Source of the DNA: Pirellulales bacterium
GTDB lineage: Bacteria; Planctomycetota; Planctomycetia; Pirellulales; JAICIG01
Direction of reading: 5' to 3'
Assembly (NCBI GenBank): GCA_036000185.1
Contig: DASYGD010000375.1
Coordinates: 1-48,494, forward strand
Length of the DNA stretch: 48,494 bases
Shown one piece after another: positions 7,267 to 40,109 of this stretch (its first letter is position 1; every line of letters begins with the position of its first letter). A program made the translations under genes and the position numbers. The notes below the pieces were generated by a model, which worked only from the letters and a program-made list of their open reading frames with translations, searched no databases and was not told the DNA's origin.

Positions 7267-8442
7267 TCAAGCGGGCTGCGTTCGCCATGCGGCGGACAGT
7301 CGAACGGTAAAGCGGCTTCCGCTGCCAAACTCGCTGGCGACTTGCAGTTGCCCGCCGTGCTTGTCGATAATCGAGCGCGTGATCGGCAGACCCAGGCCGA
7401 TGCCGCGGGCTTTCGTCGAATAAAGCGGCTCCATGATTCGTCCCAGGCTTTCTCGAGGGATTCCGACGCCCGTATCGGAGATCGTCACGGCCACGTCTTG
7501 CTCAGCTTGCTGCGCCGCGATCGCAATCAAGCCGCCATTGGGCATCGCATCCCGCGCGTTGCGCAAGAGGTTGCTGAAGACGATCTGCAACTGCCGTGCA
7601 TCGCCCAGCACTGGCGGCAATTGGGCCGCGTAATCGAATGAGACGGTGATACCCGCCGGCAATGGATTCAACTCCAAGACCTCGCCGATGCACGTTTCGA
7701 CGCAGACGGGATGCAACTCGGGCGCGGGCAGGCGGGCGAAATCGGATAAGGCTGTAATCACCCGGTCGGCCAGGTCGATTTGCCGTTCGATTCGCTCAAG
7801 GTGTTCCCGCGTCTTGTCTGCGGACGGCGTCTTGGCATTCAACAGATAATACGCCGAAGTTTTGACCGCATTCAACGGATTGCGCAGTTCGTGGGCCACG
7901 CCGCCCGCAACCTGGCCGATGGCCGCCAGCCGATCGCTGCGCTGTTGTCGCTGGCTGAATTCGGTTTGGTAAGCGTCTTGAATGATCGCTAGGTCGAGAT
8001 CCAAAAGCGCATTGAGCGATGCGAGCACCGCCAAAAGCCGGCGATCGTCGCCCGTCCAGGCACGCTCCAGAGTTCGCAGCAGATGTCGACGCAAGCGAGA
8101 CAGCGCGGCGCTGGTAAAGACCTGCGAGAGCCCGATTTCCACGTGTCTCAAACCCACGCGCCAGCGGCGAGAAACGTATTTCTTGTCGTACTCGCCGGAA
8201 ACCAAGTCGCGCAACCAGTCGCCGAGCGTTTTTTTCAACCTGGCGACTTGCTCGGCCCCACCGGTGATCACCTTGCAAGCGTCCGGATGGCGGCCGATCT
8301 CCTGATAGAAGTCATCGATGATGTCGACGATATGCGGTTCGATCAGATCGGCCACGCCCGCGACCCGCAGGGCATCGTCATCGGTCCAGCCGACGTAGCT
8401 CTGTAGTTCCTGATAGAGCTGATAAATCTTCTCACATGGCAT
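7267..8442 (-). CDS. Globin-coupled sensor histidine kinase (protoglobin-type sensor + HisKA + HATPase_c)
   Basis: The N-terminal ~160 aa show the globin-coupled-sensor pattern (DDFYQEI..HP...RLKKTLGDWL..L.SGEYDKKY...RWRVGLRHVEIGL, with a candidate proximal His). This is followed by H-box GGVAHELRNPLNAV and an ATPase domain. Confidence 0.8.
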   Translation of the reverse strand: MPCEKIYQLYQELQSYVGWTDDDALRVAGVADLIEPHIVDIIDDFYQEIGRHPDACKVITGGAEQVARLKKTLGDWLRDLVSGEYDKKYVSRRWRVGLRHVEIGLSQVFTSAALSRLRRHLLRTLERAWTGDDRRLLAVLASLNALLDLDLAIIQDAYQTEFSQRQQRSDRLAAIGQVAGGVAHELRNPLNAVKTSAYYLLNAKTPSADKTREHLERIERQIDLADRVITALSDFARLPAPELHPVCVETCIGEVLELNPLPAGITVSFDYAAQLPPVLGDARQLQIVFSNLLRNARDAMPNGGLIAIAAQQAEQDVAVTISDTGVGIPRESLGRIMEPLYSTKARGIGLGLPITRSIIDKHGGQLQVASEFGSGSRFTVRLSAAWRTQPA

Positions 8443-9933: not shown

Positions 9934-11127
9934 TCACGCGGGCAGACGCCCTTTCAAGTTGTTGGCATTAAACGGCCCTGGCTCGGCGATCAACCGCCGC
10001 GCCGCTTCTACCTGTTCCCACACGTTCCAAAGCAGCGCGCCGCGGACGCGGCCGTCTCGCAAGTAGTAAATCACCCCCTTGCGATACGGGTTCTGCCAAT
10101 CGGCCACGGTCTCCAACCGCGAGTCGGTCTCGCCGACTGCCTCGTATCCAAGATCGAACAGGTCGGAGTAAAAGAAGGGAAGATGATCGTAGACGACGGT
10201 CTGGCCCGCCATCGCCAAGCCTGCCAGCCGGCCCATCGTGTTGGCGTTGTCTTCGTGCTCCACGCGAAGACGTTGACCGAGGAGCGGGTTGTGAAAGTTA
10301 GCCACGTCGCCCGCGGCATAAATATCGGGATGGCTGGTACGCAGCGAGGCGTCGACCACGATGCCGTTTTTTACGTCCAGCCCCGCCGACAGTGCAAGCT
10401 CGACGTTCGGCCGAATGCCGATGCCCGCCACCACGCCATCCGCCGCCAGTTCCTGCTCGTTCTCATCGTGAACGTCGCGGACCTTCAGAATCGGCTGACC
10501 GGACCGCATCTCCAGGCCGGCGATCAACCTTTCCGGTACGATTTCGACGCCTTTTTTCCGGTAATAATCATTCAGGTAATCGACCAAGTCGCGCGGGAAG
10601 ATACGGCTGCCGATACCGGCCTCTGGGAAAACCATCGTCACTCGTTTGCCGTTCATGGCCAGCGCCGCGGCGATTTCGGAACCGATGAAGCCGCCGCCGA
10701 TGACCGCGAAATGCCGCCCTCGGGCGGTCTGGTCTCGGAGGCGTTGATAATCATCCAGCGTGCGCAAGTAAATAATGTGTTCGCCGCCGAACATGAAACG
10801 CCGCGGCGTGCCGCCCGTGGCCAAGAGCAGTTTGTCATAGCCATACACGGTCTCCTGGTCGTCGGTGACGCGCTTGTTCGCTGCATCCAGGCGCTGGGCG
10901 CTCCTCCCCAGGTGCAGGATCGCACCGTGGTTTTCGGTCTTGCGCCAGATTTTCTCCAGCGGCGTGTCTTTCCACAGCCCTTTTGTCAAGGGTGGGCGGT
11001 TGTAGGGCGGATGCGTTTCGGCGCCAATCAATCCGATGGGACCGCTGGTGTCGACCTCGCGGATACCCCGCACTGCGGCCGCAGCCGCCATCCCGCCGCC
11101 CACGATCAGATAATTGTAGTCAGGCAT
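9934..11127 (-). CDS. FAD-dependent pyridine nucleotide-disulfide oxidoreductase (AIF / ferredoxin-reductase-like)
   Basis: Two Rossmann GxGxxG motifs (LIVGGGMAAAAA; AVIGGGFIGSEIAAA) and AAGDVA. The likely start is MPDYNY at 11127, with GGAGAAAA upstream. Confidence 0.9.
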   Translation of the reverse strand: MPDYNYLIVGGGMAAAAAVRGIREVDTSGPIGLIGAETHPPYNRPPLTKGLWKDTPLEKIWRKTENHGAILHLGRSAQRLDAANKRVTDDQETVYGYDKLLLATGGTPRRFMFGGEHIIYLRTLDDYQRLRDQTARGRHFAVIGGGFIGSEIAAALAMNGKRVTMVFPEAGIGSRIFPRDLVDYLNDYYRKKGVEIVPERLIAGLEMRSGQPILKVRDVHDENEQELAADGVVAGIGIRPNVELALSAGLDVKNGIVVDASLRTSHPDIYAAGDVANFHNPLLGQRLRVEHEDNANTMGRLAGLAMAGQTVVYDHLPFFYSDLFDLGYEAVGETDSRLETVADWQNPYRKGVIYYLRDGRVRGALLWNVWEQVEAARRLIAEPGPFNANNLKGRLPA

Positions 11128-11232: not shown

Positions 11233-11586
11233 CTACTTCGGTTCCAGCGGCCCGTCTACGGATTGCCACGCATCGAGGCCTCCCTGAAGAGCGTACGCCT
11301 GTTGACAACCTTCTTGGCGGATGATCTGCGCCGCACGGGCGCTATTTTGCTCGCGCGGTCACGTTCAGTAAAACGCCGTGATCCGGCCATCCAGCCACGA
11401 CGGGTCGATGCGCCACTCGGCCGGCCGCACACGCACGGCCCCTGCGATCTTGACGGAACTCGATTCCCACGCCTTGTCGTTCCGCACGTCCACGATCGTA
11501 ATCGGCGCGCCGGATGCCAAATGCTCCTTGAGCTCATCGGCGCTGATCAGGCAATCCTCGTCCGGAAGCTTTTGCATCGCATTCAT
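11233..11586 (-). CDS. Single-domain rhodanese-like sulfurtransferase containing two in-frame TGA codons (candidate selenocysteines) in the active-site loop
   Basis: MNAMQKLPDEDCLISADELKEHL...GRITAFY-TGA-T-TGA-PREQNSARAAQIIRQEGCQQAYALQGGLDAWQSVDGPLEPK-TAG. One frame runs throughout. RBS GAGGAGGG precedes the ATG at 11586. The ORF track truncates it at 11365. Confidence 0.6.
11328..11342 (-). other. SECIS-like hairpin candidate GCGCC-CGUGC-GGCGC downstream of the two UGA codons
   Basis: A 5-bp GC stem with a pentaloop that has G at position 2. It starts 22 nt and 16 nt after the first and second UGA. This is a loose match to bacterial SECIS geometry only. Confidence 0.3.
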
Positions 11587-11774
11587 GATTTCCCTCCTCT
11601 TTTGATAGGCCAAACATGCGCCGCAGAACTCTCGACCGCAGCGCTGGCGAACCCTGCACCTGTGCAACTACCGCGCCTTTAGTCAGATCGCGAAACCCGA
11701 AAGCCACAAGGCTAGCAACGGACCATCCCATTGTTGCGGTGGGTGGGCGATGCCTTCGTCGGCGCAAGCCGACG

Positions 11775-13406: not shown

Positions 13407-14159
13407 ATGAGACATCCCGATATTCACAGTACGATGCGCGAGTGGCTTGCCTTTCGTCCGGGCTTGTCGCGCCTTTTCGCCAAATATGATGTCGATCTTT
13501 GCCGTGATGCAAACGTGTCGCTGAACGAGTTATGCTGTCGGAAAAATCTCGATCCGCTGATGTTGATGGCTGACCTCGAACGCGCAAAGCGGGGAACGCA
13601 CGGCGAACTGGGCGCCGATTGGTCCGCCGCCCCCTTGGGCGAGTTGTGTCAGCACGCGGAAAGAGCCCATCATGCGTATTACCTGCGTGAATTGCCGCGG
13701 CTCGCTGAGTTGTTGGCCAAGGTCAGCGCGGCCTACGGCCCGAGCCATCCCGAGACGCGTGAACTCGACAAAGCGTTCCAATGTTTCCGGGCGCGGCTTG
13801 AGTTCCACCTCGAACGCGCGAAGCAAGAGTTATTTCCGGCCATTCGACAATTGGAGGAGCTGCGGCCGCCGGCTGAGCCGCCCTGCGTGGCCGCTCTCAT
13901 CAACTCGCTGGAGCGAGATCATGACGCGATCGACGCTGATTTGCGGCGGATTCGAGAACTGACGCACGGATTCGTCGCGCCCCCCGACGTCTGCCAGACG
14001 TTTCAATCGCTGCTCGACGGACTCTGGGAGTTGGAAATGAACCTGCACCAGAACGTCTATGAGGAAAACCGCTTTCTCTTTCCCAGGGCTGTTCGGCGCG
14101 AGGCGGCGCTCAGCGCCGTTGTGGAATCCTTGGCGCCCAATCCCGATCGCCCGCCTTGA
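13407..14159 (+). CDS. ric: Iron-sulfur cluster repair di-iron protein (RIC / YtfE / ScdA family)
   Basis: N-terminal ScdA_N-like segment (MREWLAFRPGLSRLFAKYDVDLC) followed by hemerythrin-like repeats with conserved His/Glu (HHAYYLRELP..., ERDHDAIDADL..., NLHQNVYEENRFLFP). Confidence 0.85.
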   Translation: MRHPDIHSTMREWLAFRPGLSRLFAKYDVDLCRDANVSLNELCCRKNLDPLMLMADLERAKRGTHGELGADWSAAPLGELCQHAERAHHAYYLRELPRLAELLAKVSAAYGPSHPETRELDKAFQCFRARLEFHLERAKQELFPAIRQLEELRPPAEPPCVAALINSLERDHDAIDADLRRIRELTHGFVAPPDVCQTFQSLLDGLWELEMNLHQNVYEENRFLFPRAVRREAALSAVVESLAPNPDRPP

Positions 14160-14228: not shown

Positions 14229-14588
14229 ATGATCCAACTGAAGCGAGTTTACGATAAGCCCGCTCGAAAAGACGGCTTGCGGATCTTGGTCGATCGGCTG
14301 TGGCCGCGTGGTTTAACCAAGCAGCGCGCAGCAGTGGAACTGTGGTTGAAGGAAGTGGCGCCGAGCACGGAACTGCGCAAGTGGTTCGCCCACGACCCGG
14401 CGAAATGGAAGCAGTTCCAGGTCCGTTACCGGATGGAACTACGAGAGAAGAAAGACGTCCTCGAAATGTTGAAGGAGAAGGCCAAAGATCGCACCGTCAC
14501 GCTGGTGTACGGCGCGAGGGACGAGCAGCACAATGAGGCCCTGGTCCTGAAGAGCATCCTCGAAGGCCGCAGAATGAGAAATGAATGA
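14229..14588 (+). CDS. DUF488 family protein
   Basis: IQLKRVYDKPARKDGLRILVDRLWPRGLTK...WLKEVAPSTELRKWF...TLVYGARDEQHNEALVL is the typical DUF488 signature. Confidence 0.85.
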   Translation: MIQLKRVYDKPARKDGLRILVDRLWPRGLTKQRAAVELWLKEVAPSTELRKWFAHDPAKWKQFQVRYRMELREKKDVLEMLKEKAKDRTVTLVYGARDEQHNEALVLKSILEGRRMRNE

Positions 14589-17442: not shown

Positions 17443-17476
17443 CACGGGCGGGTCTGGATTGGAAGGATTCACGGTC

Positions 17477-19102
17477 ATGCATATTCGCCGCAAAACTCTG
17501 CTCCTGCTCGCTTCGCCCTTCGTGCTTCTGCTTGTCGCCGCTTACGTTCAGTGGGCCATCGCCGGCCTGCCCTCGGCGCCGCCTAACGCCACTGTCATGC
17601 CTGAGACGGCGACGGAGCCTTCTGGCTTTCCAGCCTGGCTGCGCGTCACGCACTACGTTAATTTTCTCTTCATCGTCCTGCTTGTCCGCAGCGGCCTCCA
17701 AATCCTCGTGGATCACCCGCGGCTGTACTGGAATGTCCACTGCACACCCGGCACGGAGTGGCTCCGGCTCACGCCGGTCGAGGTGCCGAAGGATCGCGTC
17801 TGGACGGCCAAGGACGACTCCCGCTATCTCTCCCCGTGGATCGGCCTGCCCGGCTACCGGCACACCATCGGCATGGCCCGGCACTGGCACTTCCTCAGTG
17901 TCATGTTCTGGGTGAGCAACGGCTTGGTCTTCGGGATCTTGTTGTTCGCGACCGGACAGTGGCGCCGTCTTGCGCCCGACTCCTGGCAGGTCGTACCCGA
18001 CGCCTGGGCCGTCTTCGTTCACTACGCCACCTTGCACCTGCCGCCGGAACCGAACGGCTTTTATCACTACAACGCCCTCCAGCAACTGGCGTACTTCGGG
18101 GTGGTGTTCATTCTGGCGCCGCTGGCGATCCTGACCGGGCCCTCCATGTCTCCGGCACTGACGAACCGGTTCCCGTGGTATCCACGCCTGCCCGGCAACC
18201 GGCAAATCGGCCGGTCGCTTCACTTCCTCGTTATGTGTGCCTTCGTTCTCTTCCTCGTCGGCCACGTGGCCATGGTGGCGATCACCGGGTTCGTCCGAAA
18301 CATGAACCATATCGTCGTGGGCAGCGATGACACCAGGCTGACCGGCGTATACTTTGGCCTGGTGGGAGTGGGCGTAATCGTGGCGGTGAATGTGCTGGCC
18401 AATTGGTTGGCGTGGCGACAGCCGCGGCTCGTGCAGCACGTTGCCAAGGCGCTCGTCACCCCGGTTATGGGCTTTATGCTCGACCGCCACGCCCCGCAGG
18501 CGGAGTTCCGCCGCGACGAGATCTCCCCGTTCGTCTGGGCCAATGGCAAGGCGCCCACCTGCGAGGAATGGAAGGCACTGGCGGCCAACAACTTTAAGGA
18601 CTATCGGCTGAAGGTGTACGGCCTGGTGGAGAACCCAGTCGAACTGTCGTTGGAAGACCTGCGGGGCTTGACCAAAAAGGCGCAAATCACCCTGCACCAC
18701 TGCATTCAGGGGTGGTCGGGCATCGCCGCATGGAGCGGATTACCGTTGGCAGAACTAATCCGACTGGTCCGGCCGAGGCCCGACGCAAAAGCGGTCGTCT
18801 TCTACTCGTTTGGCGAAGGCGTCGCGCTCCACGAGGGCGTCGTGGGTGTTCAGTATTACGACAACCTTTCGATTGAGAACGCTCTGAACCCGCAAGCATT
18901 GCTGGCTTACGAGATGAACTATCGGCCGCTCAATCATCTGCACGGAGCGCCGTTGCGGTTGCGCGTCGAGAATCAACTCGGCTTCAAAATGGTCAAGTGG
19001 ATCCAGACGATCCAGTTCGTCGAAAGCGTCCGGTCGATCGGCAAGGGTGAAGGTGGTTTTGCCGAAGACCACGAGTACTTCGGGGAGCTGGCCAACATCT
19101 GA
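17477..19102 (+). CDS. Fusion of a cytochrome-b-type membrane domain (MsrQ / thiosulfate-reductase cyt b-like) with a molybdopterin-dependent oxidoreductase domain (MsrP/YedY, sulfite-oxidase fold)
   Basis: N-terminal multi-TM region with conserved His (THYVNFLF, ARHWHFLSV, SLHFLVMCAF..GHV). The C-terminal part reads ITLHHCIQGWSGIAAWSGLPLAELI...GAPLRLRVENQLGFKMVKWIQ. The likely start is MHIRRK at 17477. Confidence 0.8.
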   Translation: MHIRRKTLLLLASPFVLLLVAAYVQWAIAGLPSAPPNATVMPETATEPSGFPAWLRVTHYVNFLFIVLLVRSGLQILVDHPRLYWNVHCTPGTEWLRLTPVEVPKDRVWTAKDDSRYLSPWIGLPGYRHTIGMARHWHFLSVMFWVSNGLVFGILLFATGQWRRLAPDSWQVVPDAWAVFVHYATLHLPPEPNGFYHYNALQQLAYFGVVFILAPLAILTGPSMSPALTNRFPWYPRLPGNRQIGRSLHFLVMCAFVLFLVGHVAMVAITGFVRNMNHIVVGSDDTRLTGVYFGLVGVGVIVAVNVLANWLAWRQPRLVQHVAKALVTPVMGFMLDRHAPQAEFRRDEISPFVWANGKAPTCEEWKALAANNFKDYRLKVYGLVENPVELSLEDLRGLTKKAQITLHHCIQGWSGIAAWSGLPLAELIRLVRPRPDAKAVVFYSFGEGVALHEGVVGVQYYDNLSIENALNPQALLAYEMNYRPLNHLHGAPLRLRVENQLGFKMVKWIQTIQFVESVRSIGKGEGGFAEDHEYFGELANI

Positions 19103-20929: not shown

Positions 20930-21514
20930 ATGACTGCCGATCCAAGAACGGTCGTCGTTACAGAGGAGTTTTGCAACGCCTGTGGCACGCCTCGGGTCAA
21001 TGTCCATCATCAGAGCTTTCCCGAAATGCGGATTAGTGGCGAATCCCCCGATCAAGCAGTCGATGAACTGGCCATCCGCCTGGAGACCAACCTCGCCGCT
21101 GTTTCAGATCCTATGCACCGCGCGCCGGTCCAGCTCGCAATCGCCGACGTCCAGGCGTTCATCAACAGGGATACTGTTCCTCAGGCTAAACTGAGCGAAG
21201 TCATTGACGTTCTGGCCGTCGGCGCGCCCGACCCGGCTGCATCGCCGAGCATGCTCGCAAAGACCGGGACCCTAGAGATTCGCCGGTTGATCCTTCCTAA
21301 GGGCCGAGAGATTCCTACCCACCATGCGCGCGGGGAGATCACGGTCCTTTGTCTGGAGGGGCGGATCGCGTTTACCGCTAGCAGGACAACGCGCGAAGTG
21401 GGGGCAGGCCAACTGATCGTCCTCGCCGCCGGTGAGCCCCACTCGCTGGTGGGCTTGGAGGACTCGACCGTGCTGGTCACGAAGATCCTGCTCGGCCGCA
21501 AGCCCGAAAATTGA
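20930..21514 (+). CDS. Cupin-domain protein with an unrecognised ~110-aa N-terminal domain
   Basis: The C-terminal LEIRRLILPKGREIPTHHARGEITVLCLEGRIAFTA....GQLIVLAAGEPHSLVGLEDSTVLVT is a cupin_2-like barrel and a paralog of 22590-22997. Confidence 0.7.
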   Translation: MTADPRTVVVTEEFCNACGTPRVNVHHQSFPEMRISGESPDQAVDELAIRLETNLAAVSDPMHRAPVQLAIADVQAFINRDTVPQAKLSEVIDVLAVGAPDPAASPSMLAKTGTLEIRRLILPKGREIPTHHARGEITVLCLEGRIAFTASRTTREVGAGQLIVLAAGEPHSLVGLEDSTVLVTKILLGRKPEN

Positions 21515-24031: not shown

Positions 24032-24997
24032 ATGGCCCGCAACACCTTTGAGTTGAAGCCAGTGTCGCCCTTCCGTCTGGACCTGGCGGTCTGGACCCTG
24101 CGCCGTCGGCCGAACAACGTCGTGGACCGCTGGGATGGCACAACCTACCGCCGGGTACTGCCCTTGCTGGCCGGGCCGGTGGAGGTGGCAGTCACTCAGG
24201 TGGCGTCTCCCGAGGCGGCGCGACTGAAAGTCATGGTGGTGGGGCAGCCGATGCGCGCCGCGGTACGGACCGCCGTGACTTCGGCTTTGGAGCGACTGCT
24301 GGGTCTGCCCATCGACCTGACGGACTTCTACCAATTCGCCGCGCACGATCGGCGGCTGGGGCCGCTGGCCCATCGCTTCCGCGGCATGAAGCCACCGCGT
24401 TTCGCCACCATCTTCGAGGGAGCGATTAACGCGATGGCGTGTCAGCAGTTGACGCTAACGCTGGGTATCCGCCTCCTCAACCATCTTACCGTGGCTTTCG
24501 GTGCCGCGTTCGGCAAGGGCGACGAGGTCGATCACGGCTTCCCCCGCCCGGAGGACTTAGCCCAATTGAGCCCCGCGGACCTGCGGCAGTTCGGGTTCAG
24601 CCGTCAAAAGAGCCGGGCTATGATCGAACTGGCCCAGTCGGTTGCCGAGGGGCATCTGGACCTGGAAGAGTTGGCGGCTCTCCCCGACGACGAGGCCGTG
24701 AATCGCCTCTGTGAACTTCGAGGCATTGGGCGCTGGACTGCGGAGTATGTCCTGCTGCGCGGTCTGGGACGGACCCACATTTTTCCGGGCGATGACGTGG
24801 GCGCCCGAAATAACCTGCAGCGCTGGCTGCGTCTGACCAAGCCGCTCGATTACCAGGGGGTCCGGCGTGTTCTGTCGCGCTGGGACGACTACGCAGGGCT
24901 CGTTTATTTTCATCTTCTGCTGGATTGCCTGGGGGAGGCCGGCAACCTCAGCGAGCCAAGTCCCCAGGGGTCGGTTGCCGCTATTGATGAATCATGA
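24032..24997 (+). CDS. DNA-3-methyladenine glycosylase II (AlkA-like, HhH-GPD superfamily)
   Basis: HhH motif LCELRGIGRWTAEYVLLRGLGR followed by the catalytic-Asp context FPGDDVGARNNL. Confidence 0.85.
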   Translation: MARNTFELKPVSPFRLDLAVWTLRRRPNNVVDRWDGTTYRRVLPLLAGPVEVAVTQVASPEAARLKVMVVGQPMRAAVRTAVTSALERLLGLPIDLTDFYQFAAHDRRLGPLAHRFRGMKPPRFATIFEGAINAMACQQLTLTLGIRLLNHLTVAFGAAFGKGDEVDHGFPRPEDLAQLSPADLRQFGFSRQKSRAMIELAQSVAEGHLDLEELAALPDDEAVNRLCELRGIGRWTAEYVLLRGLGRTHIFPGDDVGARNNLQRWLRLTKPLDYQGVRRVLSRWDDYAGLVYFHLLLDCLGEAGNLSEPSPQGSVAAIDES

Positions 24998-25236: not shown

Positions 25237-25266
25237 TTGACGTATCCGCACACCGACTTCTATCAT
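25237..25266 (+). promoter_or_regulatory. sigma70-like promoter candidate TTGACG-18-TATCAT
   Basis: Read directly, about 120 nt upstream of the actA ATG. Confidence 0.3.
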
Positions 25267-25387
25267 GCGCGGTCGGGCGCGATCAACAGCGCACGATGAG
25301 CCACCCGCGCGAGCAGCGCGCCGCTTTTCCGGCCAGCCGGCCGCGACGTTGCGAGCGACGATCATACTGGGAGGGAGCCGCGGTTCG

Positions 25388-26049
25388 ATGACGCAAATCT
25401 TCCATCCCGGCACGAACACCTTCGCCAAAGTGACGATCTTCGGCTCGCTGTTCATCGTGGCGGGACTGGCCTTCGCCTGGGACCGAGTCACTCGCTCGCC
25501 TTACGTCACCGAGGAAGACGTCGTTCGCGACCAGCCGGCGCCCTTCAGTCACGAGCACCACGTGAGCGGGTTGGGCATCGACTGCCGCTATTGCCATACG
25601 TCGGTGGAGAAATCGTCGTTCGCCGGCATCCCCGCCACCGAGATTTGCATGAGCTGCCATTCGCAAATCTGGAAAGACAGCCCGATGCTCGAACCGGTGC
25701 GCGCCAGTTTCCGCACGGGCGAGCGGCTGAAATGGACGCGGGTCCACGATCTACCCGATTTCGTGTACTTCAACCACAGCATTCACATCGCCAAGGGCAT
25801 CGGCTGCGAAAGCTGCCACGGGCGAGTCGACAAGATGCCGCTCATGCGGCGCTCCGCCAGCTTGCAAATGTCGTGGTGCTTGGACTGCCACGAACATCCT
25901 GAGGACCAAGTGCGCTCGCCGGACGCGATCTACAAATTCGGCAAGACCGCAAGCAAGACTTCGATGAGCGCGCCGCGGCGGCCGGCCGCACTCGCCGAGG
26001 AGCTTGGAATCGACGCCAAACCGCTGCTCGACTGCTGGACGTGCCACCG

Positions 26050-26053
<4 letters not shown>
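25388..26053 (+). CDS. actA: Alternative complex III subunit ActA (pentaheme cytochrome c)
   Basis: An N-terminal TM helix and five CxxCH motifs (CRYCH, CMSCH, CESCH, CLDCH, CWTCH). RBS GGGAGGGAG precedes the ATG at 25388. Confidence 0.85.
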
Positions 26054-29132
<3,079 letters not shown>

Positions 29133-29136
<4 letters not shown>

Positions 29137-30536
29137 CTCGCGACGCGAACTACGACTCGGGCGTCGCCGCGGCCGAAGGGGCGCCGCTCACCGGCGTGTT
29201 GCCCGTGCTCGAACCGGGGCACACCTACGGCTCGGTGACCGACAAGATCAGTTCGATCGTGCTGACGCAGCCGACGCCCAAAAGCTGGTGGGTCGGGTTC
29301 CTGGTCGGCTTCGTGCTGTTGATGCTGTTGACCTACGCCACCATTTACCTGTTCGCCAAGGGCATCGGAATCTGGGGCACGACCGTGCCGGTGGCCTGGG
29401 CCTTTCCGATCGTCAACTTCGTCTGGTGGATCGGCATCGGACACGCCGGCACGCTGATTTCGGCGATCCTGTTGCTGCTCAAGCAGCAATGGCGGACCAG
29501 CATCAACCGCTTCGCCGAGGCCATGACGCTGTTCGCCGTTTCGTGCGCGGGGCTGTTCCCGCTATTGCACCTGGGCCGGCCCTGGGTTTTTTACTGGCTG
29601 TTTCCCTATCCGAATACGATGGACCTGTGGCCGCAATTCCGCAGCCCGCTGATCTGGGACGTGTTCGCGGTCTCGACGTACTTCACGGTCTCGATCATCT
29701 TCTGGTACGTCGGGTTGATTCCCGACATGGCCACGCTGCGCGACCGGGCGACGCGCAAACTGCCGCAAATCGTCTACGGCATGCTGGCGATGGGCTGGCG
29801 CGGATCGGCCGCGCATTGGCATCGCTACGAAACGGCCTATCTGCTGTTGGCCGGGCTGGCCACGCCGCTGGTGGTTTCGGTGCATAGCATCGTGGGCATG
29901 GACTTCGCCGTCGCCATCTTGCCCGGCTGGCACAGCACGATCTTTCCGCCCTACTTCGTCGCCGGCGCGATTTTTTCCGGCTTCGCGATGGTCGTCACGC
30001 TGGCCATTCCGCTGCGGTACATCTACGGCTTGCAAGATTTCGTCACCATGCGGCATCTCGACAGCATGGCCAAAATTCTGCTGGCCACCGGCTGCATGGT
30101 GACCTACGGCTACTTCACCGAAGTCTTTTACGCCTATTACAGCGGCAACCCCTACGAGCGCTACGTGATGATCAACCGCGCGCTCGGACCGTACGCGGTC
30201 AACTATTGGCTCTTGATTCTCTGCAATTGCATTACTCCGCAGTTGCTCTGGTCTAGGCTGGTGCGCCGCAACGTCTATGCCTTGTTCGCGATCGCGATGA
30301 TCATCAACCTCGGGATGTGGCTGGAGCGGTTCGTAATCATCGTGATCAGCCTGAATCGCGACTTTCTGCCCTCGGCCTGGCACATGTACTATCCGACCCG
30401 CTGGGATTTCGCCCACCTGTTCGGCTCGATCGGCCTGTTTCTCACGCTGTTGTTCCTGTTCATCCGCTTCCTGCCGATGATTTCGATCTTCGAGCTGCGC
30501 AGCCTGGTCCGCGAAACCGAGGGAGGCGGGGAATGA
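29133..30536 (+). CDS. actC: Alternative complex III subunit ActC (NrfD/PsrC-like quinol-interacting membrane subunit)
   Basis: 467-aa polytopic membrane protein with an NrfD-like pattern (WGTTVPVAWAFPIVNFVWWIGIGHAGTLISA). GTGA overlap with actB. Confidence 0.9.
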
Positions 30537-31075
30537 AGGGCCGCGATGACGAAATCTACGGGCTCTTGGCCGAATTCATCGACGCCGAGTCGGTGGTCCG
30601 CGCGGCGCAAGCCGCTTACGACGCCGGATATCGCCGAATGGACGCTTATACGCCGTTTCCGATCGAGGAATTGTCGCACGCGGTCGGCCACCACCGCACG
30701 CGGCTGCCTTTGATCGTGCTGATCGGCGGGATCGCGGGCGGCCTGGCGGCCTATTACATGATGTACTACGCCTCGGTGCTCAGCTATCCGATCGACGTCG
30801 GCGGACGGCCGCTGCATAGTTGGCCGTCGTTCATTCCGATCACGTTCGAATTGACCGTGCTGGCGGCGTCGTTCGCCGCGGTGCTGGGAATGTTGGGACT
30901 GAACGGACTGCCGGCGCCCTACCATCCGGTGTTCAACGTGCCCGAATTCAAGCGGGCCAGCCGCGACCGTTTTTTCTTGTGCATCGAGGCCCGCGATCCC
31001 TTGTTCCGGCTGGCCGCAACGCGGCAGTTTTTAGACGGTCTGTCGCCGCAGCAGGTGTTCGAGGTGCAGCCATGA
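30533..31075 (+). CDS. actD: Alternative complex III subunit ActD (DUF3341)
   Basis: IYGLLAEFIDAESVVRAAQAAYDAGYRRMDAYTPFPIEEL is the typical DUF3341/ActD start. ATGA overlap with actC. Confidence 0.85.
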   Translation: MKGRDDEIYGLLAEFIDAESVVRAAQAAYDAGYRRMDAYTPFPIEELSHAVGHHRTRLPLIVLIGGIAGGLAAYYMMYYASVLSYPIDVGGRPLHSWPSFIPITFELTVLAASFAAVLGMLGLNGLPAPYHPVFNVPEFKRASRDRFFLCIEARDPLFRLAATRQFLDGLSPQQVFEVQP

Positions 31076-31091
31076 GGTCCGTAAGAGTCGG

Positions 31092-31131
31092 CTTTCGCTC
31101 CGCGAAAGAACGTCCTTTCGCGGAGCGAAAG
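31092..31131. repeat. 17-bp perfect inverted repeat (REP-like hairpin) CTTTCGCTCCGCGAAAG-aacgtc-CTTTCGCGGAGCGAAAG
   Basis: Read directly. It lies between the actD stop and the lipoprotein-type Met of actE at 31138. When read in frame it translates as FRSAKERPFAERKA. Confidence 0.6.
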
Positions 31132-31137
31132 GCGACT

Positions 31138-31737
31138 ATGTTCCTGCTCGCCGCCGCCTGTCTGACATCGACTGGCTGCGACATGCTCGACATGTACGAC
31201 GAACCGCGGTATGAACCGCTCGAAGCCAGCGAATTCTTCGCCGACGGCGGCTCGTCGCGGCAGCTCGTCGAAGGCACGATCCCGCGCGGTTGGCTGCGAG
31301 AAGACGAAGCGCTCTACACGGGCAAGCTGAACGGCGAGTTCGTGAGCAAGCTGCCCCTGCCGGTCAACCGAAAACTGTTCGAGCGCGGCCGCGAGCGATT
31401 CAACATCTATTGCTCGGTCTGTCATGGTCGCACGGGCGACGGCGACGGCATGATCGTGCGGCGCGGGTTCCGCCGCCCCCCTTCGCTCGTGCGGACCGAG
31501 CGGCTGTTGAACGCCCCGGCCGGGCATTTTTTCGACGTGATGACGCGCGGCTTCCGCGCCATGCCGAGCTATGCCAACCGCGTCGAGCCTGAGGACCGCT
31601 GGGCCATCGTCGCTTATCTTCGGGCCTTGCAACTCGGCCAAAACGCACGCATCGACGACGTGCCCGAGGAGGCGCGTGCCGAACTCGACGAAACGGCGTC
31701 GTCTTTCGCTTCGCTCCGGCGGGAGGAGCGGCAATGA
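31138..31737 (+). CDS. actE: Alternative complex III subunit ActE (monoheme cytochrome c lipoprotein)
   Basis: Lipobox-like MFLLAAACLTSTGC, a single CSVCH motif, and a distal Met context (MPSYANRV). An alternative upstream ATG at 31072 would translate through the hairpin. Confidence 0.8.
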   Translation: MFLLAAACLTSTGCDMLDMYDEPRYEPLEASEFFADGGSSRQLVEGTIPRGWLREDEALYTGKLNGEFVSKLPLPVNRKLFERGRERFNIYCSVCHGRTGDGDGMIVRRGFRRPPSLVRTERLLNAPAGHFFDVMTRGFRAMPSYANRVEPEDRWAIVAYLRALQLGQNARIDDVPEEARAELDETASSFASLRREERQ

Positions 31738-32924
31738 GGCCTTCGGATGAGTTGCTGGCCTATTTGTCCAAGGTCCGCGGGCGCGCGCTGGCGGTCGGCT
31801 GCGTTGGCGCAGCGCTGTGCGCGGCGGGTTACTTTCTGCAACCTGAGCGGTTTTTTCAATCCTATCTGTTCGCTTATGTCTTTTGGCTGGGCCTGACGCT
31901 CGGGTCGATGGTGGTCGTGATGATCCACGGGCTGACGGGCGGCGGGTGGGGCCTGGCCATCCGCCGCATCAGCGAAGCCGCCATGAACACGCTGCCGCTG
32001 ATGGCGTTGCTGTTCCTGCCAGTGCTGTTCGGCGTACCGTCGCTCTACGAGTGGTCCCATCAAGAGGTCGTTGAGCACGACGCCGTGTTGCAGTCGAAAT
32101 CGGCCTATCTGAACGTCGACGGCTTTCAGATCCGCGCTGGCGTCGTGTTCGCCGTCTGGCTCGTCACGCTGCTGGCGCTCAATCGTTGGAGTCCGAACGA
32201 AGATCCCAACCCCGACTCGCCGCGAAGCATCCGCTTGCAGCGCGCCAGCGGCGTCGGTTTCGCCCTCTACGGGCTGACGGTCACCTTCGCCGCGGTCGAT
32301 TGGGTTATGTCGCTCGAACCGCATTGGTATTCGAGCATGTACGGCATTCTGTTTGCCGCGGGCGAGGCGCTCGCGGGGCTGAGCTTCGCGATCGTCGCCA
32401 TGACGGCGCTCGAACCGTTCGATCCCTGGCGCCGCATCGTGAACACGGAGCGCCGGCACGATCTGGGGAACTTGCTGCTGGCTTTCACCATGTTCTGGGC
32501 CTACATCGCCTTCATGCAGTATTTGATCATCTGGTCGGGCAACCTGCCCGAGGAGAACGTCTGGTACTTGCACCGCGGCGTCGGCGGCTGGGAACTGATC
32601 GGCCTGGCGTTGATGGGGTTGAGTTTCGCCCTGCCGTTCTTTCTGCTCTTGCTGCGCGACGTGACGCGGCGCCGCAGCCGGCTTTGCCAAGTGGCCGGCT
32701 TGCTGCTGGCGATGCAGGCGGTCAGCGCGTATTGGCTGGTCGAGCCGGCGTTTTCTCCGGGAACTTTGACGATCCATTGGCTGCACGTCGCCGCACTGGC
32801 CGCCGTCGGCGGCTTTTGGGCGGCGATGTTCGCGTGGCGCTTGCAAGCCAGGGCGTTTTTGCCGATCCACGATCCTGAGTTGTTGGAGGCGGTCGATGAA
32901 CGAGCTGGCCATGCCGCCGCCTGA
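31734..32924 (+). CDS. actF: Alternative complex III subunit ActF (NrfD-like membrane subunit 2)
   Basis: 396-aa polytopic membrane protein. ATGA overlap with actE. Its position and hydrophobic profile are typical of ActF. Confidence 0.85.
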   Translation: MRPSDELLAYLSKVRGRALAVGCVGAALCAAGYFLQPERFFQSYLFAYVFWLGLTLGSMVVVMIHGLTGGGWGLAIRRISEAAMNTLPLMALLFLPVLFGVPSLYEWSHQEVVEHDAVLQSKSAYLNVDGFQIRAGVVFAVWLVTLLALNRWSPNEDPNPDSPRSIRLQRASGVGFALYGLTVTFAAVDWVMSLEPHWYSSMYGILFAAGEALAGLSFAIVAMTALEPFDPWRRIVNTERRHDLGNLLLAFTMFWAYIAFMQYLIIWSGNLPEENVWYLHRGVGGWELIGLALMGLSFALPFFLLLLRDVTRRRSRLCQVAGLLLAMQAVSAYWLVEPAFSPGTLTIHWLHVAALAAVGGFWAAMFAWRLQARAFLPIHDPELLEAVDERAGHAAA

Positions 32925-33333
32925 AGGCGAACCGCGACTGGGCTACGAACCGCGCGACGTTCGCGTCGGCTGGATTCTGACTTTCGCCGGAGTCTTGGCG
33001 GCGATGGTGATTCTGGTCTTGCCTTTGGCGGATTGGACGTTCAGAAGCTTCGCTCGCAGCGCCGCGAAAACGGACGTCCCGGCGAGCCCGTTGGCGGGCG
33101 ATCAATCGCCTCCTCGTTCCCAGCCTCTTCTGCAAAGCCGGCCGAGCGAAGATCTGGCGGAACTGCGACAGCGAGAAGACGAAGCGCTCTCGCATTACCG
33201 CTGGATCGATAAGGAGCAGGGGGCGGTGCAGATTCCGGTCGATCGAGCGATCGAATTGTTAATCGAGCGCGGCTTGCCCGAGCCGCCGCCGACAAAACAG
33301 GACGGCGCGGCGCGAAGCGAGGACGAACCATGA
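32896..33333 (+). CDS. Small single-TM protein co-transcribed with ACIII (possible ActG-like accessory subunit)
   Basis: One TM helix (VGWILTFAGVLAAMVILVLPL). It overlaps the end of actF. No family assignment is possible by eye. Confidence 0.55.
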   Translation: MNELAMPPPEGEPRLGYEPRDVRVGWILTFAGVLAAMVILVLPLADWTFRSFARSAAKTDVPASPLAGDQSPPRSQPLLQSRPSEDLAELRQREDEALSHYRWIDKEQGAVQIPVDRAIELLIERGLPEPPPTKQDGAARSEDEP

Positions 33334-33409
33334 GCGCGTTTGCGAATCCGCGAACAATCGTCGACGGACCGGAAGTCCGTCCTGCGATTCGGTTAAGACG
33401 GCCGGAGGA

Positions 33410-33544
33410 GGATTACGGATTCCTCTTCTCTGCCCATGGCTTCTCGCCGCCACGGCGACCTCGGATTGCGGCTGCCGGCTCCGAACCGGCTTGTCGAACA
33501 AATAACAATGCTCCGCGCGAGCAGAGAAGAGGAACCCGTAATCC
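33410..33544. repeat. 135-bp element bounded by 24-bp inverted repeats (23/24 match), MITE/REP-like
   Basis: GGATTACGGATTCCTCTTCTCTGC (33410-33433) pairs with the reverse complement of GCAGAGAAGAGGAACCCGTAATCC (33521-33544). It is intergenic, between the small TM gene and the SCO1 signal peptide. Confidence 0.5.
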
Positions 33545-33557
33545 CCGGTGTCGGCTC

Positions 33558-34661
33558 TTGAACGCCGCTCGGCCCCTTGGAACCCGGAAGCCGCTGTTCT
33601 CGTTCGCCGCCGCCTTGTCGATCCTATGCAGCCTTACTCTGCCCGCGCCTCTGGCGGCGCAGAATCGTGCCATCACTCAAAACTACAAAACGCCGGCGGG
33701 CAAAAGCCCGCTGGACGGAATGCTGAACGAGATCGGCATCGATCAACGGCTCGGCGCCCAGTTGCCGCTCGACTTGGAATTTCGCGATGAGGGCGGCGAC
33801 AAGGTCCGTCTCGGCGATTATTTTCATGAAAAGCCGGTCGTGCTGGCGCTGGTGTACTATCGTTGCCCGATGCTTTGCACGCAGGTGCTCAACGGTCTCC
33901 TCAAAACCAGCCAGGCCGTCAAGTTCGCCATCGGCCGGGACTACGACGTGGTGACAGTCAGCTTCGACCCGCACGACACGTCGGAACTGGCCGCCGAGAA
34001 GAAGGCCAGCTACGTCCGCGCGTATCGCCGCGATGGCGCGGCCGAGGGCTGGCATTTTTTGACGGGCGACGCCGAATCGATACGGCGCCTGGCCGCAACG
34101 GTGGGATTTCGCTACGTCTACGACGAGCGAACCGATCAATACGCCCACGCCAGCGGCATCATGCTGGCCACGCCCGGCGGTCGGCTGTCGCGGTATCTGT
34201 ACGGCATCGAATACGCGCCGAACGATCTGCGGCTGGGGCTGGTCGAAAGTTCGGAATCGAAGATCGGCTCGCCGGTCGATCAGGTGTTGTTGCTCTGCTA
34301 TCACTACGACCCGCTGACCGGCAAATACGGCCTGGCGATTTCCGGTGCGCTGCGCGCGGCAGGCTCGGCGACGATGCTGTTTTTGGGCGGCTTTCTCGTC
34401 GTGATGTTCCGGCAAGAGCGGCGCCGGCAGCGCCTGGTGCGCCTCCCTCTCCCTCTGGGAGAGGGCCGGGGTGAGGGGGCTGCGTCAACGAAGATCTACG
34501 GCCCTCACCCTCACCCTCTCCCAAAGGGAGAGGGGATCTCAGGCCTCCCTCTCCCACGGGGAGAGGGCCGGGGTGAGGGGGCTGCGTCAAGAAGCGTGCT
34601 GCCCGAGACCACCAGCCCTCACCCTAACCCTCTCTCAGAGGGAGAGGGGACCGAACCATGA
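33558..34661 (+). CDS. SCO1/SenC family copper chaperone with a C-terminal TM helix and a repeat-encoded tail
   Basis: Thioredoxin-fold CxxxC ([15 protein letters not shown]) and a conserved His context (YAHASGIML). The putative TTG start at 33558 gives the signal peptide [35 protein letters not shown]. The ORF track starts at 33330. Confidence 0.75.
34441..34650. repeat. Two tandem copies of a composite palindromic REP-like element (units A1-B1-A2-B2)
   Basis: A units read GCCTCCCTCTCCC-NNNG-GGAGAGGGCCGGGGTGAGGGGGCTGCGTCAA (34441-34488, 34542-34590). B units read GCCCTCACCCT-N-ACCCTCTC-NNNNN-GGGAGAGGGGA (34501-34536, 34615-34650). A and B are partly reverse-complementary. Confidence 0.7.
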
Positions 34662-35697
34662 TCGACGATGGCTTTCGCCTGCTGCCCGAACAGGCCTCGA
34701 CGCACGCTCCGGACGTCGACTTGCTGTATTACGTCCTGGTCGCGGTCTTTCTTTTCGTCCAGGCGATCATCGCCTTTCTGATCGTCTATTTCGCGGTGAA
34801 GTATCGCAGCGGCTCCAAGGCCGCGCGCGACGCCTATCGGCCCGAGCAGGCCGCCGCCGTCGCTCGCCGCCGACATGCGATGGAGATCGCCTGGGTGGTG
34901 GGGCCGTTGATCGTGTTCGCGGGGATTTTCATCTGGGGCGCCAAGCTGTTTTTCGTCAGCTATCGCCCGCCCGACAACACGCTCGATGTGCGGGTCGTCG
35001 GCAAGCAGTGGATGTGGAAGTTCCAGCATCCCAGCGGCAAGCGGGAAATCAACGAATTGCACGTGCCGCTTGGGCAGCCGATCCGACTGATCATGATTTC
35101 CGAGGACGTGATTCACAGCATGTATGTGCCGGCCTTCCGCGCGAAACACGACGTGCTGCCCGGCTCGTACAGCCAGCTCTGGTTCGAGGCCAACCGGCTG
35201 GGCGAATTCCATCTGTTTTGCGCGGAGTATTGCGGCACGGAACATTCGCGGATGATCGGCCGCGTCGTGGTGCAGGAACCGAACGAGTATCAGGCCTGGC
35301 TTTCGGGCGGCGCGGCGAACGAGCCGCCGGCCGTGGCGGGCAAGCGGCTGTTCGAGGACTTGCGCTGCGCGACGTGTCACGAGGGGGGCGGCCAGTCGAG
35401 CCGTTGCCCGCCGCTGGCGAATCTCTACGGCCATCCGGTCAAGCTCGTCGGCGGCGAGACCGTAGAAGCCGACGACGACTACCTGCGCGAATCGATTCTG
35501 CACCCGGCCAAGCAGGTGGTGGCCGGATTCAAGCCGATCATGCCCGCCTTCGAGGGACAGATCGGCGAAGAAGGGTTGATTCAACTGCTCGCTTACCTCA
35601 AGTCGCTTTCCAAAGCAGAAGCGGCATCCCCGCCGCTGGCTCCGGCGACGCGGCAAGACGACGCGCCCCAGCCGGACGAGAAGGCGAAGCCAAAGCC

Positions 35698-35701
<4 letters not shown>
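34658..35701 (+). CDS. coxB: Cytochrome c oxidase subunit II with fused cytochrome c domain (caa3-type)
   Basis: Two N-terminal TM helices, the CuA site HSMYVPAF...[12 protein letters not shown], and a C-terminal CATCH heme c motif. Confidence 0.9.
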
Positions 35702-37378
<1,677 letters not shown>

Positions 37379-37386
<8 letters not shown>

Positions 37387-38080
37387 CGTTCCTTTGCCTT
37401 CCGGGTCGGCGCCTCGCGCCGAGCATGGCGCCGGCCGCTCGCCTGCCTTGCACCATCAGTTCGAGGATCTCGGGCAACAGCACGAGGCGGGCGAGATGGG
37501 CATGTGGCTGTTCCTGGCCACCGAGGTGATGTTCTTCGGCGGCATGTTCCTGGCCTACGCCCTCTATCGCTTGAAGGACGAAGCCGCCTTCGCCGCCGCC
37601 AGCCACCACATGGATCTCTGGTGGGGCACGGCGAACACGGCCGTGCTGTTGACATCGAGCCTGATGATGGCTACGGCCGTCCACGCCGCCCAAACCTCGC
37701 AGCGCAAGCTGCTTGAAGGCATGTTGCTGGCCACGATGACGCTGGGGACCGTCTTCCTGTGCATCAAGGGCTATGAGTATTATCGCAAATACGTCGAAGG
37801 CTACATGCCGCTGTTCGGACTGCCGTTCCGTTACGACGGCCCTTCGCCTGAACACGCCGAAATGTTCTTCGGTCTGTACTTCCTGATGACCGGCGTCCAC
37901 GCGCTGCACATGATCGTGGGGCTGGGCGTGCTCGCTTGGCTGTTGGCGCATGCTCGCCGCGGCGGCCTGATGGGCGACTTTTCGGGGCCCGTCCACATTA
38001 CGGGGCTGTATTGGCACTTCGTCGATATCGTGTGGGTCTTTTTGTTTCCGTTTTTGTACCTGATCGGGGCGCGCGGCTGA
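37379..38080 (+). CDS. coxC: Cytochrome c oxidase subunit III
   Basis: [36 protein letters not shown] start overlaps the coxA stop. Confidence 0.9.
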
Positions 38081-38414: not shown

Positions 38415-39743
38415 TGTACACAATCATTGTCAGGCGCAACCAAAGTGCGGATCGAGGATTGGCAGGCGACCGAGCCGCAGCCGCTTGTCCCGTCGATGAG
38501 GCAGGCCGACCCTCGGAGAGCAACGCCGGACAGTGGATTTGAGTCGGCGGGCGAACGCGGCGCAGCCGCGAACGCCGATCACGGACGAGATTGGAGGCGG
38601 GTTACCGGTCAAGCCGCTTGGCGGTAGTAGTGCTTCAGCAGCCCGCCCAACCGCTCGCGGCAGTGGATCGCGCCTTCCACAATTTCCGACGGCGGTTCCT
38701 TCTCGCCGAAGCGGCGCAGTCGCGTGTTGCCCACGCCTTGGTGCGCACGTTCCTCGTTGTAATAGGTCGTATACTGGCCGAGGATGTGCCGCAGATGCGC
38801 TTCGCCAAACACGATGAAGTGCTCCAGGCATTCTTGCCGAACCGATTGCACCCAGCGTTCCGCATAAGCGTTTAGGTTCGGCGCCATCGGGCCGACCTTT
38901 TTCGTCTCAATGCCCTCGGACTTGAGGATCGCGTCGAATTCCGCGGTGTACTTGGAATCGTGATCGCGGATCAGCAGCGTTGGTCGCTCCGGCAACTCGT
39001 CGAAGAACGAGTTCATGTTCCGAGCCTGTTGAGCCATCCCGGCCGAGTTGGGATTCGGCGTCATGCCGGCGATATGCACGCGCCGCGTGGCGACGTTGAT
39101 GAAAAACAGCACGAAGAACTCGACCAACCCGCCCTTGGTCCAGACCTTCTTGGAAAAGAAGTCGGTGGCCCACAGCGTCTCGGCGTGCCGCTTCACGAAC
39201 TCGTCCCAAGTTCCTTCGCCCCGCTTGGGGCCGGGATCGAGGCCGTGCTCCTTCAAGATATTGACGACCGTGGAGCGAGAGACGCCGTTGATGCCCAGCT
39301 TCTTCAGCTCGCCGAGGATTTTGGTGTAGCCCGCGCCGGTCTCGCGGGCGATCTTCAAGATCAGCGCGCGAATTTCGTCCGCCGTGCGCTTGCGGCCGGG
39401 CTTGGCTTCCTTTTTGTCCACCGGCAACTTGGTCTCGCCGCTGGCCCAGCGGGCGAAGGTCCGCGGGCTAACGATCGTAATCACTTCGTCGAGCTTCTTG
39501 CCCAGCGGCTTGCCGTACTTCAGTAACCGCTGTCGCTGCTCCGACGTCAGCCGCAAGCGGCCGGGCAGTTGCTCGCGCAGGATCTTGTTCTCCTCCTTCT
39601 GAAATTGAACGATCTTGGCCAGTTCGCATTCGGTGAACTGAGCCAAGCGCTTCAGAAAGGCAGTGTAAACCTTGTTGCTCGGTCGCATCGTGCTAAAATC
39701 CGCAAGTCCATGCTAGCATCCAAGATGACCATGATTTTGTACA
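38415..39743 (-). mobile_element. IS481-like (IS3 superfamily) insertion sequence, 1329 bp, single transposase ORF
   Basis: Terminal inverted repeats TGTACACAATCATTGTCA (38415-38432) and the reverse complement of 39726-39743, TGTACAAAATCATGGTCA (16/18 match), flank the rve-type transposase ORF. No clear target-site duplication is seen. Confidence 0.65.
38609..39688 (-). CDS. DDE transposase / integrase core domain (HTH + rve)
   Basis: N-terminal HTH region (YTKILGELKKLGINGVSRSTVVNILKEHG). Catalytic core with WATDFF..., IRDHDSKYTAEF and NAYAERWVQSVRQECL (the D, D, E context typical of rve). Confidence 0.9.
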   Translation of the reverse strand: MRPSNKVYTAFLKRLAQFTECELAKIVQFQKEENKILREQLPGRLRLTSEQRQRLLKYGKPLGKKLDEVITIVSPRTFARWASGETKLPVDKKEAKPGRKRTADEIRALILKIARETGAGYTKILGELKKLGINGVSRSTVVNILKEHGLDPGPKRGEGTWDEFVKRHAETLWATDFFSKKVWTKGGLVEFFVLFFINVATRRVHIAGMTPNPNSAGMAQQARNMNSFFDELPERPTLLIRDHDSKYTAEFDAILKSEGIETKKVGPMAPNLNAYAERWVQSVRQECLEHFIVFGEAHLRHILGQYTTYYNEERAHQGVGNTRLRRFGEKEPPSEIVEGAIHCRERLGGLLKHYYRQAA

Positions 39744-40080: not shown

Positions 40081-40109
40081 TTGACGACGCGCGTCGTTAT
40101 TGGTATCGT
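40081..40109 (+). promoter_or_regulatory. sigma70-like promoter candidate TTGACG-17-TATCGT with the 14-bp palindrome ACGACGCGCGTCGT (40084-40097) in the spacer, a candidate BlaI-type operator
   Basis: Read directly, about 55 nt upstream of the GTG start at 40165. Confidence 0.35.

Follow-up and report, generated by a model that had tools for sequence, protein, structure and literature searches.

A rhodanese-like gene with two in-frame UGA codons and a compact SECIS-like hairpin in a Pirellulales contig, probably encoding a double-selenocysteine protein

We analysed a 48,494-nt stretch of DNA from a Pirellulales bacterium (GenBank assembly GCA_036000185.1, contig DASYGD010000375.1, positions 1 to 48,494 of the forward strand), hereafter the window, and in particular a gene on its minus strand that encodes a single-domain rhodanese-like protein and in which two in-frame UGA codons are separated by a single codon. 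In our view this locus is very probably a working gene whose product is a rhodanese-like protein with two selenocysteines (Sec, U; motif U-T-U), served by one compact selenocysteine insertion sequence (SECIS) hairpin. The elements of the gene are the following.

11233-11586, minus strand: coding sequence (CDS) of the predicted rhodanese-like selenoprotein, single domain, 117 residues, from the ATG at 11586 to the TAG at 11233, with the motif F-Y-U-T-U-P
11593-11597, minus strand: Shine-Dalgarno sequence GGAGG, 6 nt 5' of the ATG at 11586-11584
11365-11367, minus strand: first UGA (codon 74), predicted Sec, aligned with the first Cys of the Y-C-x-C-P of homologues
11359-11361, minus strand: second UGA (codon 76), predicted Sec, at the Sec position of the known C-x-U (LYCAU-type) rhodaneses
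11328-11342, minus strand: candidate bacterial SECIS (bSECIS) apical hairpin GCGCC-CGUGC-GGCGC, with a 5-bp stem, a 5-nt loop and G-U at loop positions 2-3

From the ATG, 73 sense codons run on the minus strand up to ...GRITAFY and are followed by the first TGA; the mechanical list of open reading frames (ORFs) ends the rhodanese ORF there, at 11365, as had been reported in an earlier model-made reading of the letters without database searches (the sequence-only reading). The codons of the motif are TAC (11370-11368), TGA (11367-11365), ACG (11364-11362) and TGA (11361-11359), and after the second TGA there are 41 sense codons (PREQNSARAAQIIRQEGCQQAYALQGGLDAWQSVDGPLEPK) and then the stop TAG at 11235-11233, hence the read-through product is written ...AFY-TGA-ACG-TGA-PREQNSARAAQ... 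around the motif. The coordinates given in that reading for the frame, for both UGAs and for the hairpin were all correct to the base, and the strong ribosome binding site that it claimed is the GGAGG at 11597-11593, which belongs to a block AAAG-GGAGG-ATCATG found both here and in the related loci L001-L003.

With Cys placed at both UGAs, the product matched Pfam PF00581 (Rhodanese) over positions 1-101/102 (E 1.2e-10, 42.1 bits against a threshold of 22.2), whereas the 73-aa stump alone matched the same family over positions 1-40 (E 1.4e-4). The codons after the UGAs supply, as previously proposed, the missing C-terminal half of the rhodanese domain. That 41 codons stay open downstream of a stop is by itself not rare in DNA of 62% GC, with a chance of about 0.3 according to our own base-composition estimate. 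Among the well-supported genes of the window TGA is the normal and predominant stop, in agreement with the sequence-only reading, and the genetic code is therefore not generally reassigned.

Relatives were collected by using the read-through product as query in a word-indexed search over 5.8 billion proteins, by a separate exhaustive phmmer search with the 73-aa N-terminal product, and then by a profile search. The word-indexed search returned two matches only, both of exactly 73 residues; the contigs of these matches (L001-L003) read Y-TGA-ACG-TGA-PREQNSARAAQ..., with the frame open to the same TAG and with amino-acid substitutions downstream. Many representatives of the phmmer family end at the column of the first UGA (...LTVVY), many two residues later (...VVYCT, ...IYCA), and a small number extend over the full length and read Y-C-T-C-P, Y-C-D-C-P or a similar motif. 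Precisely, the 181 family proteins that were retrieved include 50 ending at the first motif position, 91 ending after Y-C-x and nine with C-x-C (seven C-T-C, one C-D-C and one C-S-C), the remainder having lost one or both Cys. U-x-U represents about one third of the Sec-type family members retrieved, and every form stopping at position 1 for which DNA was obtained proved to be U-x-U. A scan of genome collections gave two loci, which were L004, from a metagenome-assembled genome (MAG) of Planctomycetota and ending at a contig edge, and an ordinary gammaproteobacterial rhodanese. The top match of the exhaustive search, P0003 (1745 aa), was discarded as it is no relative, being a tandem-repeat protein with 33 weak matches to query residues 1-26 and hence a spurious summed score.

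Both TGAs are kept, in the form Y-TGA-(ACN/GCC)-TGA-P, in 13 related metagenomic loci of 40-93% protein identity, which come from independent samples (JGI, ENA, Logan and NCBI). These loci split into at least four lineages of 44-87% identity, and protein identity among the U-x-U lineages is 44-93%. The motif is U-T-U in the window, L001-L003, L006, L007, L010/L011, L012/L013 and L014, and U-A-U in L015, L016 and L017. Orthologues were checked for disruptions of the kind expected in a pseudogene, and the frame is kept to the homologous stop, with no frameshift, in 12 of the 13. The exception is L017 (GCA_009772375.1, WNFJ01754012.1, ~268-660), a U-A-U copy otherwise identical to L016, in which the frame is lost near the 3' end (...DAWRAGRSGEPS...), probably by an indel error of that assembly rather than by decay.

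The codons downstream of the UGAs are under purifying selection, as strong as or stronger than that acting upstream: the ratio of nonsynonymous to synonymous substitution rates (dN/dS, Nei-Gojobori) was 0.06-0.35 over the 41 codons after the UGAs and 0.23-0.77 over the 60 codons before them. Together with the persistence of both TGAs, this agrees with the view of the sequence-only reading that random decay does not account for the two codons. Cys and Sec are found at both UGA columns in homologues. Full-length proteins with Cys at both columns are P0119 (YCTCP), P0099 (YCSCP), P0140, P0161, P0167, P0016 and P0031, hence the Cys-x-Cys-Pro relatives that the sequence-only reading had mentioned do exist. 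At the first column the C-x-U relatives L018 (CTU), L021 (CAU) and L009 (CSU) have TGC or TGT, and the second column is TGA in all 14 distinct Sec-type sequences aligned (the 13 loci and the window), U-x-U and C-x-U alike.

Some members of the family have a different architecture or a different residue in the motif. P0140, P0044 and P0068 share a conserved N-terminal extension of ~110 residues (MAE(M/I)(I/L)DCLV(N/T)Y...) fused to the rhodanese domain, and in P0040 the domain is fused to a 440-residue region similar to PEP-utilising enzymes. In P0062 (126 aa, full length) the sequence is L-A-F-C-A-W-P and the second motif position is taken by Trp; as TGG differs from TGA by one base, this may be a Sec-to-Trp replacement or an artefact of base calling or annotation.

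The 14 distinct sequences were aligned codon by codon starting from the Tyr before the motif. All but L009 have the codons AGC GCC CGT G(C/T)G GCG in register, and L009 differs by GGT for CGT and GTG for the final GCG. Synonymous sites vary in the flanking codons (CCG/CCC/CCT, GAG/GAA, CAA/CAG, AAT/AAC) and not within the hairpin codons. From the first UGA it is 22 nt to the start of the hairpin and 27 nt to that of its loop; from the second UGA these distances are 16 nt and 21 nt. The folding free energy (dG) of the hairpin is -9.4 kcal/mol in the window and from -9.1 to -9.6 kcal/mol across the Sec-type sequences. In the C-x-U relatives L018, L021 and L009 this element is likewise found 16 nt after the second UGA. 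A single occurrence of the hairpin pattern was counted in the window, where 0.02 would be expected, and the longer pattern TGA-N3-TGA-CC-N13-AGCGCC-NGTGN-GGYGC is present in 13 of 13 related U-x-U loci.

We compared these values with the published bSECIS model (PMC13188914), i.e. an apical loop of 3-9 nt with a G within its first two nucleotides and, usually, G or U after it, an upper stem of 4-16 bp, a dG <=-7.5 kcal/mol and a UGA-to-loop spacing of 16-37 nt. With a loop of 5 nt (C-G-U-G-C), a stem of 5 bp, spacings of 21 and 27 nt and -9.4 kcal/mol, the hairpin lies within the rules stated there for both UGAs, and it is exactly the element that the sequence-only reading had named as being within SECIS spacing. 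In the single Cys-type homologue with DNA, L022 (Y-C-T-C-P-N-E-A-S-A-A-R-V-A), which is one control, the corresponding codons are GCT GCC CGT GTG GCT and the best hairpin has only -4.1 kcal/mol.

Two larger structures were considered and rejected. The longer stem of the minimum free energy (MFE) fold, CCGCGCG/CGUGCGG, which includes the second UGA, is broken in L006 and L007, in which the 5' arm is CCCAACG; hence it is not the conserved feature, the small hairpin being the universal one. An extended lower helix (CCUG...CAGG) is present in most other lineages and, being absent from the window clade, was placed outside the core element.

Cys and Sec have been exchanged at the first motif position at least twice, as indicated by protein identities. 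The U-T-U proteins of L006, L010 and L012 share 71-73% identity with L018 (C-T-U) but 55-59% with the window protein, and L021 (C-A-U) shares 64-68% with the U-A-U proteins of L015 and L016. In a neighbour-joining tree built from 148 cores of sixty residues, at least 13 changes were required, against 42 for shuffled labels, and Cys was placed at the root; since this tree is short and noisy, we took from it only that there were several C/U changes. That the hairpin keeps a fixed register with respect to the second UGA is consistent with a derivation of U-x-U from C-x-U.

The fold was examined on an AlphaFold2 model of the Cys homologue P0099, which is a rhodanese fold with a mean predicted local distance difference test (pLDDT) value of 84.9 and for which Foldseek returned BH2092, Alr3790, RPA3614 and GlpE with TM-scores of ~0.6-0.7. 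In this model the central strand (residues 69-73) ends at Tyr73, Cys74-Ser75-Cys76 are in coil and a helix starts from Pro77, hence the U-T-U motif of the window protein would sit between the central beta-strand and the following helix. The six-residue anion cradle C-X5-(R/S/T) appears, as far as the model goes, to be replaced by a three-residue C-x-C link. The sequence-only reading had placed the first UGA on the catalytic Cys, but either of the two positions may be the catalytic one. In the HMMER alignment, which needs a two-residue gap, the catalytic Cys of RPA3614 falls on the first motif position, and the strand topology agrees with this; however, in the more common C-x-U form Sec occupies the second position, which is also the one retained in G-T-C and G-N-C homologues.

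In the mechanism that we propose, both UGAs would be recoded co-translationally as Sec by SelB and Sec-tRNA(Sec), under the direction of the one small SECIS hairpin inside the CDS (11342-11328). Given that this hairpin has the C-x-U spacing for the second UGA, we infer that it would also serve the first UGA, which lies 6 nt further from it. U-x-U would derive from a C-x-U ancestor by a change of TGC or TGT to TGA at the first position, which would have happened more than once. The protein would probably act as a chalcogen-based redox module or as a module for sulfur/selenium transfer, and, by analogy with the general chemistry of C-x-C and Sec centres, its two Sec would form a diselenide or a selenenyl intermediate, or would carry a persulfide or perselenide.

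Several observations weigh against this proposal. The best NCBIfam match of the product, NF041203 (rhodanese_LYCAU, 'rhodanese-related (seleno)protein'), is full length (E 1.9e-24) and well above the next family (~34 bits), but its 85.7 bits are under the curated cutoff of 115. Because the hairpin is invariant, no covariation is possible that would prove the pairing, the sole change in the stem being G-C to G-U in L009, and the wider region folds no more stably than shuffled sequence does (z -0.2). The conservation of the hairpin could be partly due to the encoded peptide S-A-R-A/V-A, which may itself be selected, and for the rhodanese family it is still a proposal that one hairpin can serve two UGAs 6 nt apart. 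No selA, selB, selD or tRNA-Sec was found in the 48-kb window or in the fetched loci: the window gave nothing from Rfam at gathering thresholds and nothing from ARAGORN, which also reported no tRNA in nine related loci. No credible second selenoprotein emerged when the window was scanned for ORFs that a TGA splits in two.

It is unlikely that only the second UGA is read as Sec, with the first passed by a less efficient route (near-cognate read-through as Trp or Cys) or working mainly as a selenium- or SelB-dependent gate that ends most ribosomes after 73 residues. Such an explanation would account for the register of the hairpin, which is bound to the second UGA and the same in C-x-U relatives, the first UGA being 6 nt outside it; the Trp of C-A-W in one homologue indicates that TGA/TGG exchange occurs in the family, and Sec insertion was reportedly sensitive to the UGA-hairpin spacing in work on E. 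coli fdhF. On the other hand, the Cys found at the first column in Cys-type homologues is the classical Cys/Sec signature, and the first TGA persists across lineages of 44-87% identity, with C and U alternating there between close relatives. Moreover, a spacing of 27 nt is well within the bSECIS range (PMC13188914), and the literature accepted a U-x-U form as double-Sec (PMC1976440).

We assigned a very low probability to the UGAs being read as a standard amino acid without selenium, by a UGA-suppressor or a Cys-inserting tRNA, in which case the hairpin would serve another purpose or would merely reflect the peptide. The Sec machinery was indeed not found within the 48 kb examined and the hairpin is without covariation, but TGA ends most of the well-supported genes of the window, which speaks against a general reassignment, and it is only in the forms containing TGA that the hairpin does not vary at synonymous sites. 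In addition, the closest curated relative is a recognised selenoprotein family, and members of the Planctomycetes, the likely phylum here, with complete Sec gene sets have been documented (PMC4807772). That the locus is a decaying pseudogene, or that its TGAs are errors of assembly or sequencing, would agree with the fact that gene callers cut the product at 73 aa; it is effectively refuted, because both TGAs recur in 13 independent loci of different projects, 12 of which have no frameshift, the downstream dN/dS is low and 50 database entries end exactly at the first-UGA column. Recoding of both UGAs as Sec thus has by far the largest share of probability in our evaluation.

The genes around the rhodanese gene were annotated as follows.

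7267-8442, minus strand: protoglobin-histidine kinase
9934-11127, minus strand: FAD/NAD(P)H flavoprotein, 397 aa, cysteine-free, with Pyr_redox_2 and AIF_C/Reductase_C domains (Pfam, NCBIfam)
13407-14159, plus strand: hemerythrin/ScdA-like protein
14229-14588, plus strand: DUF488 protein
17459-19102, plus strand: cytochrome b561-molybdopterin oxidoreductase fusion (MsrPQ-like)
20930-21514, plus strand: cupin
24032-24997, plus strand: HhH-GPD glycosylase
25265-38080, plus strand: alternative complex III-like cluster, with a cytochrome c7-type protein, a 1031-aa molybdopterin/4Fe-4S subunit and an NrfD-like membrane subunit
38609-39688, minus strand: ORF with rve_3 integrase core and HTH_32, between the oxidase cluster and the BlaI/BlaR1-like pair
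40081-44072, plus strand: BlaI/penicillinase-repressor-like gene, followed by a 1166-aa BlaR1 M56 peptidase

The flavoprotein gene lies directly downstream of the rhodanese gene, in the same orientation, and its best matches are ferredoxin-NAD+ reductases. The sequence-only reading had seen in it a redox partner similar to FAD-dependent disulfide reductases, which these matches, and those to AIF C-terminal domains, contradict. In fact, the protein and its orthologues in L001, L010 and L018 have zero Cys, with no redox-active CxxxxC pair near the FAD site, and a flavoprotein without cysteine is not a thiol-disulfide reductase; hence a classical (class I) enzyme of this kind was ruled out. In L001 and in the contig of P0001 (JGI) the flavoprotein gene is again the next one after the rhodanese gene, direct adjacency being confined to the window clade, and it is found within ~6 kb of the rhodanese gene in L010, L012 and L018/L019, for a total of three clades. 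By association only, it is possible that the flavoprotein is a functional partner of the rhodanese.

The DUF488, cytochrome b561-molybdopterin fusion and cupin genes are likewise within ~6 kb of the rhodanese gene in L010, L012 and L018/L019. An HhH-GPD glycosylase is near it in L018, and hemerythrin and Rrf2 genes are near it in L010 and L012. This recurrence suggests a shared redox- or (nitrosative-)stress-related gene neighbourhood around the rhodanese, and the U-T-U motif would point to Sec-based chemistry within a neighbourhood rich in redox- and stress-type genes. ODP genes are also among the recurrent neighbours.

In the rest of the window, the alternative complex III-like genes are followed by SCO1 and by subunits II and III of a cytochrome oxidase (caa3). 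The ORF at 38609-39688 is probably the transposase of an IS element. The BlaR1 M56 protein has Ig-like and carboxypeptidase-regulatory-like domains and a C-terminal AhpC/TSA-thioredoxin domain, and an architecture of this sort seems typical of Planctomycetota. Both this protein and the alternative complex III/caa3 oxidase cluster would fit an assignment of the window to that phylum.

The sequence-only reading had considered a U-x-U loop as unusual, but U-x-U makes up about one third of the Sec-type members that we retrieved, and Zhang & Gladyshev (2007, Nucleic Acids Res 35:4952, PMC1976440) describe a U-x-U 'rhodanese-related sulfurtransferase' selenoprotein from deltaproteobacterial symbionts of Olavius algarvensis. 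A selenoprotein of this kind was hence already described in 2007, the window gene adding a member from another, apparently unannotated, lineage, and the current knowledge of selenoproteins is not overturned. What we consider modestly new is the frequency of U-x-U in this environmental clade, its recurrent origin from C-x-U and its systematic mis-annotation. The most ambitious form of the proposal is that one 15-nt hairpin programmes two Sec insertions 6 nt apart, in a diselenide-capable U-x-U with a three-residue loop and a recurrent C-x-U origin, common in a Planctomycetota-like clade missed by NF041203 and by gene callers; taken as a whole, we judged it evenly balanced between holding and failing.

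The locus would be a well-supported natural case of two selenocysteines one residue apart, apparently with one very small SECIS hairpin, and a compact system for probing how far SelB tolerates changes in the UGA-to-SECIS spacing. It also points to a gap in annotation, as databases hold stumps of 73 aa and 75 aa, and the ten clade members tested all score below the NF041203 cutoff.

Regarding the known systems, the 2007 U-x-U rhodanese (PMC1976440) has the same motif and the same inferred origin by addition of a second Sec to a single-Sec form. Its sequences are from marine deltaproteobacterial symbionts, whereas the present clade is from other metagenomes, with the Planctomycetota MAG L004 as the only named relative, and the two were likened by motif description. 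In a 2026 review of prokaryotic selenoproteomes, five forms of rhodanese selenoproteins are distinguished, of which form 3 is NF041203 (CxU, one Sec) and form 5 is TsoB (UxxxxU, two Sec). Nine more clade members (U-x-U, C-x-U and C-x-C) scored 83.1-105.1 bits against NF041203, all under 115; since all ten members tested are under the cutoff, the clade lies just outside the NF041203 equivalog, and from these profile scores we read it as its sister clade. NF041203 has Sec at the last position of Y-C-x-U, where the second UGA of the window sits, and Cys at the first motif position, hence one Sec, whereas the window protein is predicted to have a second Sec there (U-T-U); the hairpin and its spacing are common to the window gene and to its C-x-U relatives. 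TsoB (NF045694), which is similar to a rhodanese/DsbD fusion, is likewise a rhodanese-domain selenoprotein with two closely spaced Sec, but it is a 572-residue fusion with another motif and another spacing, and its match to the window protein is very weak (17.8 bits). Finally, canonical single-domain sulfurtransferases (E. coli GlpE, 1GMX; RPA3614, 2HHG; Alr3790, 3K9R) have the same fold, with phmmer E values of 3e-6 to 1e-4; enzymes of the GlpE/RhdA type have one chalcogen residue in a six-residue cradle, whereas the window protein, judging from the model of its Cys homologue, would have two of them in a three-residue C/U-x-C/U link.

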